This document shows positions 33,282-36,642 of a stretch of 64,000 nt of DNA, piece after piece; the first letter of the stretch is position 1; each line of letters opens with the position of its first letter. The DNA is taken from positions 64,411 through 128,410 of the IMG/VR virus record IMGVR_UViG_3300033463_000032; one strand, written 5' to 3'. Source of the stretch: a virus. Its lineage: Duplodnaviria > Caudoviricetes. Both the position numbers and the translations under genes were made by a program. Below the pieces are notes generated by a model. That model saw nothing but the letters and a program-made list of their open reading frames with translations. It was not told the DNA's origin and searched no databases.

Positions 33282-33368
33282 GTGATTAACTTTGGTGATA
33301 TTACAAAAATCAATGGAATGGAAGTTCCAATGGTAGATATTGTTACTGGTGGAAGTCCCTGCCAATAG
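33282..33368 (+). CDS. N-terminal segment of C5 DNA methyltransferase (motifs III-IV including catalytic PCQ), ends at TAG
   Basis: AAAGGAGGTG RBS; translates (M)INFGDITKINGMEVPMVDIVTGGSPCQ*. Confidence 0.85.
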   Translation: MINFGDITKINGMEVPMVDIVTGGSPCQ

Positions 33369-33373
33369 CGCAT

Positions 33374-35467
33374 GATCTTAGTGTTGCTGGAAAAAGAAAA
33401 GGATTAGATGGTGAAAGATCAGGTTTGTTTCTTGAACAAATAAGAGTTATTAAGGAGATGCGTGATTATGACAAAAGAGTTAATGGGAGAACAGGTGAGT
33501 TTATTCGACCAAGATATATGGTGTGGGAGAACGTCATTGGATGTTTCAGTTCCAATAACGGAGAAGATTTCAGGTGTGTCTTGCAAGAAACAATCAACAT
33601 CATTGACTCAACCACCAATGTTCCTGGATTGCCGAAAGGAGCGCAATGGTCTAAATCTGGGGTTGTTCTGGGAGATGGATGGTCTATCGCTTGGAGAGTA
33701 CATGACGCACAGTTTTGGGGAGTCCCCCAAAGACGTAAAAGAATCTCGCTTATCGCAGATTTTGGAGGACAATCCGCACCTGAAATACTCTTTGAGCGCA
33801 AAAGCGAGTATAGGGATCTTGAACAGAGCCAAGAAAAGGGGCAAGACACTTCCACCACAATTGGAGATAGCATTGCAGAAACAAGCGAATCTGATGTAAA
33901 GTCTTATGGTTGTGATTTAAAATCTGGTAGAATTTCCGGTAATATTTCACCTACATTAACAACCAGATCAGGAAATTCTGCTACTACTGGTGGTCAAGTA
34001 TTAACTGTTAAAGAAGGTTGTCTTAATTCTTGGGAAGTACAAAGTAAACATATACAACCTTCCAATGGTATTGCTGAAAGTTTGTATTCTGGTGAAACTA
34101 GATATGGTGGTGGAGAATCATATGTTTTAGATGATACTAAAGTTTATGGTATATCTGCTTATGATAGTAATGCTATGAAATCAGATAATCCTAATAGTGG
34201 AATTTATGAAGCTGATACTGCAAGAACTTTAGATTTAAATGGTGGTAATCCGGCATGTAATCAAGGTGGTATGGCAGTAGTGTATACAAACTATAAGGCT
34301 GATGGAGCTACTGGAAATGATATTGCTTTTGCTACTGTAGGAGATCATGAGAACAGACCTACTGATATGACGAACTTAGTTGTAAAACAATGTTCTAAAG
34401 ATGCTGATAGTAAACTCACATTTAGAAAGACAGGACACCCTCAAAATTCAGAAGAAGGGCAAGGTTGGGAAGAATGTAATATTAATGATACATTGAATGT
34501 TACTGATAATTCAGAAACTAGAACACCTACATTAGTTGTAGATCAAGGTGCTGGAAAGTCACAATGTAATGTATCAGAAGAAGTAACACCTACTCTTACT
34601 ACTACTCACGGTGGTGAACCTGTTATATCTTGTGAAGTTTTTCATTGTAGTACAGAAGAAGAAGTAGCAGCACCATTAAAGGCCAGAGATTTTAAAGATC
34701 CTCAAATTGTTAAAACACAAGATGTTTATGGAATAGATCAACAAGGCGGTAAAGGTCAAGGAAACTATACCATTAATGTAGCACCTACAATGGCATCTGA
34801 AAGTCATGGAACACCTCATGCAGTATGCTATGATAAAGAACAACAGAAAGAACATATTTATAGCTTAGAAGGTAATGGATCAAGAGATAGTCATAAAGGT
34901 GATGGATATTCTGAATCTGAGGTTATGTATACTTTAAATACAGTAGAACAACATGCGGTATGTTGTTCTGGTTCAGAAACATATCAAAAAACTTCTGGGT
35001 GTCTTAATGCTAGTGGTTATGATAAGTTAGGTACTCAAGAAGCTACTAATGATATGTATGTTGCTAATTCTTCTATTGTTCGTAGACTTACACCATTGGA
35101 ATGTACTAGACTTCAAGGATTCTATGATCATTGGTGTGATATTGGAGATTGGTATGATACTAAAGGAAAACTTCATAAGGATTCAGATTCAGTAAAGTAT
35201 AAAGCATTAGGTAATTCCATTGCTTTGCCTTTCTGGAAATGGATGGCTAAGAGAATGGTTAGTCAATATCCTAGTGATTATAAACCTACTATGGCTAGTC
35301 TGTTTGATGGTATTGGTGGCTTTCCTTTGTCTTATTATGAAGCTGGTTGTAAACCTGTTTGGAATAGTGAAATTGAAGAATTTCCTATGGCAGTAACAAG
35401 AAAACATTTTGGTGATGAAACTACCGGAGAAGTAGGAGATCTGGAAAAGTTTTATGAAAACAAATAA
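33374..35467 (+). CDS. Main body of a circularly permuted, multi-TRD C5 cytosine DNA methyltransferase
   Basis: Frame resumes DLSVAGKRKGLDGERSGLF; WENV (VI), PQRRKR (VIII), about 10 target-recognition (TRD)-like repeats, RRLTPLECTRLQGF (IX), YKALGNS (X), then SLFDGIGG (I) and SEIE (II) at the C-terminus. Confidence 0.9.
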   Translation, partial: DLSVAGKRKGLDGERSGLFLEQIRVIKEMRDYDKRVNGRTGEFIRPRYMVWENVIGCFSSNNGEDFRCVLQETINIIDSTTNVPGLPKGAQWSKSGVVLGDGWSIAWRVHDAQFWGVPQRRKRISLIADFGGQSAPEILFERKSEYRDLEQSQEKGQDTSTTIGDSIAETSESDVKSYGCDLKSGRISGNISPTLTTRSGNSATTGGQVLTVKEGCLNSWEVQSKHIQPSNGIAESLYSGETRYGGGESYVLDDTKVYGISAYDSNAMKSDNPNSGIYEADTARTLDLNGGNPACNQGGMAVVYTNYKADGATGNDIAFATVGDHENRPTDMTNLVVKQCSKDADSKLTFRKTGHPQNSEEGQGWEECNINDTLNVTDNSETRTPTLVVDQGAGKSQCNVSEEVTPTLTTTHGGEPVISCEVFHCSTEEEVAAPLKARDFKDPQIVKTQDVYGIDQQGGKGQGNYTINVAPTMASESHGTPHAVCYDKEQQKEHIYSLEGNGSRDSHKGDGYSESEVMYTLNTVEQHAVCCSGSETYQKTSGCLNASGYDKLGTQEATNDMYVANSSIVRRLTPLECTRLQGFYDHWCDIGDWYDTKGKLHKDSDSVKYKALGNSIALPFWKWMAKRMVSQYPSDYKPTMASLFDGIGGFPLSYYEAGCKPVWNSEIEEFPMAVTRKHFGDETTGEVGDLEKFYENK
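33468..33899 (+). CDS. Alternative-frame MTase beta-like subunit nested in the MTase gene
   Basis: AAGGAG RBS at 33452-33457; SRLSQILE..PHLKYSLSAKA..GILNRAKKRGK.LP..L..AL resembles the M.EcoHK31I beta polypeptide. Confidence 0.75.
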   Translation: MTKELMGEQVSLFDQDIWCGRTSLDVSVPITEKISGVSCKKQSTSLTQPPMFLDCRKERNGLNLGLFWEMDGLSLGEYMTHSFGESPKDVKESRLSQILEDNPHLKYSLSAKASIGILNRAKKRGKTLPPQLEIALQKQANLM

Positions 35468-35633
35468 ATACGAAGATGTTTCTTTTGATGTTTATGGTAT
35501 AGATGCCAAGGGTTGTGGGGAATGTAGATTATCTTATGAAGTTCATCCTACACTAACTATTGGTGGTGGGATGCCAGGTCAAGGATATCCATGTATTTTA
35601 ATTGTTAGTAGGAAAGAAGAAGAACATGAGTAA
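35454..35633 (+). CDS. 59-aa free-standing TRD-like peptide, not in ORF track
   Basis: MKTNKYEDVSFDVYGIDAKGCGECRLSYEVHPTLTIGGGMPGQGYPCILIVSRKEEEHE; matches the repeats inside the MTase. Confidence 0.7.
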   Translation: MKTNKYEDVSFDVYGIDAKGCGECRLSYEVHPTLTIGGGMPGQGYPCILIVSRKEEEHE

Positions 35634-36642
35634 GTTTTTGAAGAATATTTTTATAATAGATGGTTCTTTTATGTTACATAGAGCATTACATCTTTCTGAT
35701 GTATTTGCTCTTACTAACTCTAAAGGTGAACATACTGGTGGTATTTTTCAATTTCTTAGAATGTTAAATAGTGAAGTAAGAAAATGTGGTGAGTATTTTC
35801 CTATAGTTGTTTTTGACCAGGGATTAAACCAAAGAAGAGTTAATTTAGATCCTGATTATAAAAAAGCAACTGAAAGAGTACAACAAGAACAGATGGTTCT
35901 TACACCAGATGAAGTAGAAAATGATTATGTAACACAATATAGAAAACAAAGAGACAGACTTTCTGTTATTCTTCCATTCTTTGGTATTCCGGTTATCAAG
36001 ATGGCAGGTTGGGAAGGTGATGATCTTATGTATGTTTTATCAAAGATATCAGAAAGATCTGTAGTATTAACTGATGATAGGGATATGTTGCAATTACTTT
36101 CTGCTACTTGTGATGTAAAAAGACCAAAAGCAAGTGAGTATGTTACTTTAGAATCATTCTTAAAAACAGAGGGTTATCAAAATACGCACGATTTTGTGTC
36201 TTGTAAGGCTTTGCTAGGTGATAGTAGTGATAACATTCCCGGATGTTGTGTAGGCGTAGGAGAGGGCAATATAAAGGGATTATGGCGTTTGTATAAGTTT
36301 TGTAAGGAAAATGGTGTTGTATATCCTAAAACTGAAAAGGAACTTAGAAGTCTTTGTAAAGGAATAGGTGTATCTTACAGAAAAGCCTATTTAAATTTAG
36401 ATTTAGCCAGATATAATATAAATCTACAGTTGATGGATCTGGATTTGGTTAAGATTAAACCAAGTGAACTGGATTCTATTATTGCTACAATAAATAACAG
36501 TACCAGTGCTATTAGTTATTTTAATGCAATAAAACAACTTTCAGAACTAGAAATATCAGATTTTGCAATAGATGAATTAATGAGAACTGTTAAGTTAAAA
36601 GAACAGTATAAGAAAGTAGAACCGTCTGAGTATGAATATTAA
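35626..36642 (+). CDS. 5'-3' exonuclease / flap endonuclease (T4 RNase H / T5 D15-like)
   Basis: IIDGS..LHRA, VFD, YK, EGDD, TDDRD.LQL, LLGDSSDNIPG..GVG. Confidence 0.93.
   Translation: MSKFLKNIFIIDGSFMLHRALHLSDVFALTNSKGEHTGGIFQFLRMLNSEVRKCGEYFPIVVFDQGLNQRRVNLDPDYKKATERVQQEQMVLTPDEVENDYVTQYRKQRDRLSVILPFFGIPVIKMAGWEGDDLMYVLSKISERSVVLTDDRDMLQLLSATCDVKRPKASEYVTLESFLKTEGYQNTHDFVSCKALLGDSSDNIPGCCVGVGEGNIKGLWRLYKFCKENGVVYPKTEKELRSLCKGIGVSYRKAYLNLDLARYNINLQLMDLDLVKIKPSELDSIIATINNSTSAISYFNAIKQLSELEISDFAIDELMRTVKLKEQYKKVEPSEYEY

Follow-up and report, generated by a model that had tools for sequence, protein, structure and literature searches.

What does a gene do that encodes a single recognition module of a DNA methylase and no catalytic part? 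C5 cytosine methylases are textbook single-chain enzymes, with the choice of target built into the chain. The question is raised by a stretch of 64,000 nucleotides (nt), hereafter the window, from a virus of the Caudoviricetes (IMG/VR record IMGVR_UViG_3300033463_000032, positions 64,411 to 128,410), in which an open reading frame (ORF) of 59 codons lies between the gene of a C5 methylase and that of a 5'-3' exonuclease. The first-pass annotation had described this ORF as overlapping both neighbours and had read it as a free-standing module similar to a target-recognition domain (TRD). The ORF and both overlaps are indeed present, at the following positions of the window.

35454-35633, + strand: the mini-gene, with ATG start, 59 codons and TAA stop at 35631-35633; it encodes a 6.7-kDa protein consisting of a single TRD module.
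35454-35467, + strand: overlap of the mini-gene start with the methylase end (ATGAAAACAAATAA), 14 nt; the ATG is 11 nt before the methylase TAA (35465-35467).
35626-35633, + strand: overlap of the mini-gene stop with the exonuclease start (ATGAGTAA), 8 nt; the exonuclease ATG is at 35626.
35487-35606, + strand: the module core, residues 12-51, DVYGID..G.GEC....EVHPTL..GGGMPGQGYPCILIV.

The comparisons described here show the mini-protein to be, at the level of sequence, a stand-alone copy of the KGNG...GGGxPGQGYPC target-recognition module of phage-type multi-module C5 cytosine methylases. Its likeness to the internal modules of the adjacent methylase, which the first-pass annotation had claimed from inspection, is confirmed by BLASTP, in which the 59 amino acids (aa) match the 680-aa methylase ORF at residues 377-399 (E 0.001), 433-456 (E 0.003) and 161-183 (E 0.014). 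The best local score is 48, compared with 29.7 ± 4.7 for shuffled sequences, of which 6 in 2000 reach it, and the sum of the three best segment scores is 133, compared with 77 ± 8, a value reached by 0 of 1000 shuffles. A phmmer search of 1.84 billion cluster representatives returns 123 matches at E ≤ 1e-3. These define a family of about 45 residues that runs YG, three residues, KGNG(D/E), H..L..GGG, two residues, GQGYPC(V/I)L, and the profile of the family matches the mini-gene ORF at E 2.8e-27, which upholds its description as a free-standing TRD-like module. The residues of the mini-protein that are conserved in the family are Y14, G15, G20, G22, H31, L34, G37, G38, G39, G42, Q43, Y45, P46 and C47. 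In an alignment of 54 sequences, with the window as the first row, G38, G42, Q43 and P46 are invariant, and G15, G20, G22, H31, L34, G37, G39 and Y45 are at least 90% conserved. All the hallmarks, YG, G.G, H..L, GGG and G-Q-x-Y-P, are present in the mini-protein; residue 21 is a Cys, where most members of the family have an Asn. Searches of Pfam and NCBIfam match the ORF to no family, methylase included, and a PDB search with the sequence profile of the module gives no match.

The location of the module in other genomes indicates its role. Among 57 viral and 80 metagenomic loci that carry it, the module is nearly always an in-frame part of a C5 methylase and falls between motifs VIII and IX, within the kind of array in which the first-pass annotation had proposed to look for it. 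The distance from the module to motif IX is often about 17 residues. HMMER aligns the TL...GG element of one member of the family (L062) with the segment 'lsayggg..ktggylv' of M.HhaI, just before motif IX. Because of its position between motifs VIII and IX and the likeness of its TL...GGG...G-Y element to this pre-IX segment, we infer that the module is probably a minimal target-recognition unit. The family profile finds no second copy of this module type in the 128-kb genome, and the approximately ten modules of the methylase's own array belong to other types.

It is likely, from the features of its sequence, that the mini-gene is a real and conserved gene encoding a detached recognition module, and that it is translated. 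Its codon-usage log-likelihood is 0.437 bit per codon, which is the 61st percentile of 59-codon windows from the long genes of the phage and exceeds every off-frame window; the other two frames of the mini-gene score -0.63 and -1.05. The closest homologues are four sequence variants on five contigs, all 55 aa long, all beginning with MKTN and finishing with EEEHE, and the best phmmer match is a 55-aa protein of 74% identity (E 8e-20). One of the variants, P0245, is located on a 4792-nt contig, and a 4792-nt contig from another study (run X5) is about 90% identical to the methylase and to the start of the exonuclease. Between 35465 and 35612, 134 other letters on the X5 contig replace 146 of the window, a difference of four codons, so that the mini-gene, as judged from the alignment, retains its position and reading frame in a diverged relative, as a 55-codon version at the junction of methylase end and exonuclease start. 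Outside the overlaps (residues 5-53), the window and the 55-aa relatives agree at 33 of 45 aligned positions, and all the hallmark residues of the family are retained. The first-pass annotation had left room for an ORF without conservation and without profile similarity to the internal repeats; the 55-aa homologues and the match to the family profile point the other way. A first metagenome scan for the closest homologue of the mini-gene found none, scans using P0002 and P0247 found distant embedded copies only, and tblastn of the ORF against GenBank phages gave no match.

For the 59 residues alone, AlphaFold2 (54-row alignment) predicts a four-strand sheet, with strands at residues 3-6, 9-18, 24-27 and 47-53, a mean predicted local distance difference test score (pLDDT) of 81.9 and a predicted template modelling score (pTM) of 0.59. 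The model fits a mini-protein able to exist as a unit by itself. It has no usable fold match: the best E value in Foldseek is 3.2, and the best Z score in the wide VIA-align search is 2.5.

The enzyme to which such a module would belong is encoded immediately upstream.

33374-35467, + strand: main frame of the methylase, a circularly permuted multi-module C5 enzyme (PF00145, E 9.8e-20).
33282-33373, + strand: start of the methylase in another frame, with GTG, INFGDITKING...GGSPCQ and then 8 extra bases, TAGCGCAT (33366-33373).
33468-33899, + strand: nested ORF in the +1 frame inside the methylase, 143 codons (tblastn E 5e-21).

The mini-gene is in the +1 frame relative to the methylase. The main frame of the enzyme encodes, in this order, the tail of motif IV (DLSVAGKR), motifs VI and VIII, about ten TRD modules, and motifs IX, X, I and II. 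The same permuted order is found in L001, L005, L016 and other related loci, and at least 378 stretches in IMG/VR encode the order IX-X-I-II. Motifs I, II, IV, VI, VIII, IX and X are shared out between the two methylase frames (33282-33365 and 33374-35467). The 8 extra bases in motif IV are present in the X5 relative too, which has no indel there. An ORF in the +1 frame at the nested position is conserved in about 45 related loci and has 765 protein homologues.

Related enzymes occur in several broken forms. Scoring was possible for 46 permuted loci: 33 have one ORF spanning motifs VIII to IX and 13 do not; 8 of these 13 consist of two overlapping genes. In L161, L166, L176, L180, L182, L190, L230 and L232, and also in L010, the +1-frame ORF is not nested and forms the N terminus of a long ORF that takes in the modules as well as motifs IX, X, I and II, and the frame with motifs IV to VIII ends soon after motif VIII. 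The long +1-frame ORF together with the short IV-VIII frame thus makes two overlapping genes for one enzyme. Among related loci of rumen phages, L016, L024 and L049 have module arrays made up of successive overlapping ORFs with one module each, most of them in the +1 frame relative to the ORF before, and L060, which is cut by the end of its contig, has the homologous module as a separate 52-aa ORF. In these four loci the homologue of the mini-gene is a small ORF of 52-76 codons, starting, for example, with MKIAYGVVTKGNG. The order and frames of the ORFs are alike in L016 and L024 at 61-73% nucleotide identity, with 0.2-0.3 nonsynonymous substitutions per site (dN) and synonymous substitutions (dS) from 0.7 to saturated; for the module of the mini-gene, the pair is 74% identical in aa and 67% in nt, with a dN of 0.218. 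These substitution values indicate that the one-module ORFs of related loci are under purifying selection.

About half of the one-module ORFs carry GGAG or AAGGAG plus an ATG. The junctions between them have a conserved xATGAAR, which encodes (Y/H)-E in the frame being left and M-K in the frame being entered, often with GGAG before it, and which is absent from in-frame arrays with the same neighbouring modules. The presence of this motif at broken junctions and its absence from in-frame arrays favours separate initiation over frameshifting. Serial +1 ribosomal frameshifting was considered for the arrays with rotating frames and rejected: the upstream frames extend 15-20 codons beyond the start of the next module, the junctions are without slippery site or stop, and it is the ATG, often with GGAG, that is conserved. 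Sequencing error was likewise rejected, since the adjoining genes are intact and the pattern is common to contigs with saturated synonymous sites. The intact neighbouring genes argue against recent decay as well.

Small module proteins are common among the cluster representatives that bear the module: 44 of 122 are 100 aa or shorter, all with a Met start, and 30 longer ones (>100 aa) carry no catalytic motif. In a tree that is short and weakly resolved, the window belongs to a supported clade of seven rows, six of them small (Shimodaira-Hasegawa-like approximate likelihood ratio test, 95). The small state is clustered on this tree, requiring 24 changes compared with 36 in shuffles, and 0 of 500 shuffles are as low.

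Tracts of G6-G8 occur within related methylase genes (L010 at about 3400, L011 and L012 at about 860 and 3780, L024 at 3505, 3652 and 4040, L016 at about 1905), at the junction before motif VIII and inside the GGG motifs of modules. The length of the tract sets which frames join: the in-frame L005 has G4, compared with G8 in L010 and G6 in L011. Such tracts could serve phase variation of the architecture or specificity of the methylase.

How, then, might a free module work? Ribosomes ending the methylase would re-initiate at the ATG 11 nt upstream of its stop and make the 6.7-kDa protein, which would fold alone as a small β-sheet. The mini-protein would then dock non-covalently in the recognition slot of the methylase core, otherwise taken in turn by the built-in modules, and add a further target sequence to those of the enzyme, rather like the separate specificity subunit of Type I systems. 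This whole sequence of events, including action in trans on the methylase core, is the favoured reading of the locus, and we put it forward tentatively. Action in trans is preferred because the cis array has no module of this type, because free-standing modules recur among relatives, where they are clustered and under selection, and because the methylase family tolerates splitting. A broader proposal, which is possible but more doubtful, is that some phage C5 methylases use separate plug-in recognition mini-proteins of 50-90 aa, encoded one at a time, as here, or in runs of overlapping one-module genes (L016, L024, L049), and that the core, sometimes split in two, is programmed by them combinatorially.

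Several observations weigh against a plug-in specificity module. A Shine-Dalgarno sequence is absent at 3-13 nt upstream of the mini-gene ATG, an AGGAG being 15 nt away; 35 of the 42 long genes of the phage have one at 3-13 nt, mostly at 6-10 nt. In its absence at normal spacing, initiation would depend on coupling to methylase termination. The approximately ten cis modules already in the methylase would out-compete a free one for the slot, and we know of no solved structure with a C5 methylase recognition domain acting as a separate chain. Against flanks that are about 90% identical, the DNA of the middle part of the mini-gene does not align with the X5 relative at an 80% threshold; it evolves faster than the flanks, which also fits weak constraint. 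Conservation of the first four and last six residues is explained by the overlapping neighbour genes. Finally, none of 14 other permuted methylase loci carries such an ORF after the end of the gene. Of the loci with the module, only 4 of 57 viral ones and 1 of 61 from metagenomes have it as a free-standing ORF.

In the main rival explanation the ORF is a detached relic, a recognition module left behind the methylase gene or moved there, with no remaining role in methylation, drifting under weak constraint and kept as a translational coupler; translation through it would carry ribosomes from the methylase stop to the start of the exonuclease, whose ribosome-binding site lies within the ORF. The overlaps at both ends, the lack of a Shine-Dalgarno sequence of its own, the rapid change relative to the flanks, the position after the methylase, which is unique to one small clade, and the conservation of the ends through the neighbour genes all agree with it. 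A coupler, however, has no need of the hallmark residues from Y14 to C47, yet the window and all four 55-aa variants retain them; the codon usage is fully gene-like, the length difference between relatives is in frame, and the same module as a small ORF elsewhere is under clear purifying selection. We therefore regard a mere coupler as unlikely. The confidently predicted autonomous fold and the conservation of the mini-gene would also suit a small protein derived from a recognition module that has acquired another role, either as a regulator or competitive inhibitor occupying the slot or as a small DNA-binding protein. Such a protein would compete with the cis modules instead of adding to them, but no specific role is indicated and no family or fold outside the methylase modules is matched, which makes this explanation improbable.

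A further explanation is recoding. With a +1 shift at AAA-TAA-A (35462-35468), the methylase would gain residues 5-59 as a C-terminal extension, a module outside the array. The mini-gene is in the appropriate frame, an AAA codon precedes the stop, and expression of the methylase already depends on recoding once, within the catalytic motif. The separated recognition domains reported, by title, for the multispecific M.(phi)BssHII also speak for such an arrangement. The in-frame ATG conserved in the relatives (MKTN) nevertheless offers a simpler reading, no stimulatory element was identified around the shift site, and, by general knowledge of C5 structures, a permuted enzyme ends after motifs I-II, in its cofactor-binding domain and at a distance from the recognition slot; the fusion is thus very improbable. 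The silent cassette stored for recombination into the module array, which the first-pass annotation had offered as an alternative to action in trans, is the least credible of all. Modules do turn over, as the very different arrays of the window and the X5 relative show, and 17 of 18 nt are identical between 35487-35504 and the start of an internal module at 34721-34738 (the DVYGID stretch). This stretch is the sole shared DNA, its identity being accounted for by identical residues and strong codon bias, and there is no 3' homology in the right order; recombination between the two 18-nt copies would cost the enzyme motifs IX, X, I and II. Silent cassettes of the pilS or vls type are without start codon and expression signals and have shared flanking repeats, while the mini-gene has its own ATG, gene-like codon usage, a place in an operon and no flanking homology in an order that would permit conversion.

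The plug-in reading has partial parallels among known systems. The C5 methylases of the Bacillus phages SPR, phi3T, rho11s and H2 combine one core with several short recognition domains, one for each target (PMC8936443). Like them, the window methylase is a phage enzyme with several modules, about ten in tandem. In the SPR type all the domains are in one polypeptide between motifs VIII and IX, whereas here one module is a separate gene, as is every module in some related loci, and the mini-gene follows IX-X-I-II in another frame with its own ATG. In M.EcoHK31I the β chain is encoded in another frame within α (PMC2836561), and M.AquI (α/β) is a natural two-polypeptide C5 methylase (PMC5944983). 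These are separately translated chains that must associate, and the family of the window enzyme likewise occurs as two overlapping genes. In M.EcoHK31I and M.AquI, however, catalytic motifs are found on each chain, while the mini-protein of 59 aa bears none of motifs I-X, and the window enzyme is complete without it.

The resemblance to HsdS of Type I systems, where specificity also comes from a separate protein docking on the methylase, is one of functional analogy only. HsdS is obligatory and has two recognition domains, and its fold, size and enzyme class (N6-adenine) are unrelated to those of the mini-protein. For M.(phi)BssHII (1999), the title reports recognition domains in separated locations, so that such domains can reportedly work outside the single canonical array, though still within one polypeptide. 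To our knowledge, and in the literature examined, a bare recognition module as a separate gene is undescribed and would be a new variant of the split and multispecific C5 methylases; we also know of no description of the Type-I-like logic of non-covalent specificity subunits for C5 enzymes.

The permuted methylase has features of its own. Rotated motif orders like that of the window enzyme occur naturally in M.BssHII, M.Alw26I, M2.Eco31I, M.Esp3I and M2.BsaI (PMC5944983). Natural permuted C5 methylases in REBASE all begin between motif VIII and the recognition region, and an engineered motif II-III topology is highly active and absent from REBASE (PMC5944983). The new N terminus of the window methylase (33282-35467), in contrast, falls between motifs II and IV. 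At the change of frame in motif IV, the take-off codon CAA, after Pro-Cys, is followed by TAG, and CAT stands 5 nt further on, so that resuming at GAT restores PCQ-DLS. The X5 relative is about 10% diverged elsewhere, and 33291-33384 (94 nt) is without a difference among those listed, so that invariance of this segment is likely. In the comparison of 34016-35008 with the same relative, the module array is largely unalignable and the catalytic parts are about 90% identical; 388 nt are replaced by 136 other letters, and 34620-35008 is uncovered. This pattern points to a rapid turnover of modules in the array. The same permuted methylase, with an intact PCQDLS motif, occurs at 3830-4960 of L001, a Subdoligranulum variabile plasmid (OY725880), where the nested +1 ORF has GAGGAGG upstream with a 7-nt spacer. 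Since this record is of a bacterial plasmid, the permuted architecture is not confined to phages.

The window is the second half of a parent record of 128,410 bp, which is complete, has direct terminal repeats and originates from bovine gut/rumen metagenomes. The + strand operon runs from the C5 methylase through the 59-codon ORF and the 5'-3' exonuclease to more replication genes, and no promoter-like or terminator-like site was found between the methylase, the mini-gene and the exonuclease. Two features flank the mini-gene.

35433-35435, + strand: in-frame TAG upstream of the mini-gene, seven codons before its ATG; a further in-frame ATG is at 35415.
35626-36642, + strand: 5'-3' exonuclease (FEN-type) gene, immediately 3' of the mini-gene (PF02739, E 5.8e-24).

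The frame of the mini-gene is open from the ATG at 35415 to 35453 except for this TAG. If the phage used readthrough of the TAG, the product would be 72 aa long. A search of the exonuclease against IMG/VR gave no relative, and no tRNA genes were found in the window.

If the module were inert, the locus would still show clearly that a protein domain can survive as a conserved mini-gene. If instead the mini-protein docks on the methylase as proposed, phages could exchange or switch tiny genes to alter the sites they methylate, and with them the set of host restriction systems that they evade. The many apparently broken methylase arrays in gut and rumen viromes would then be working multi-subunit enzymes and not pseudogenes, and their modules would be natural parts for engineered targeted DNA methylation.

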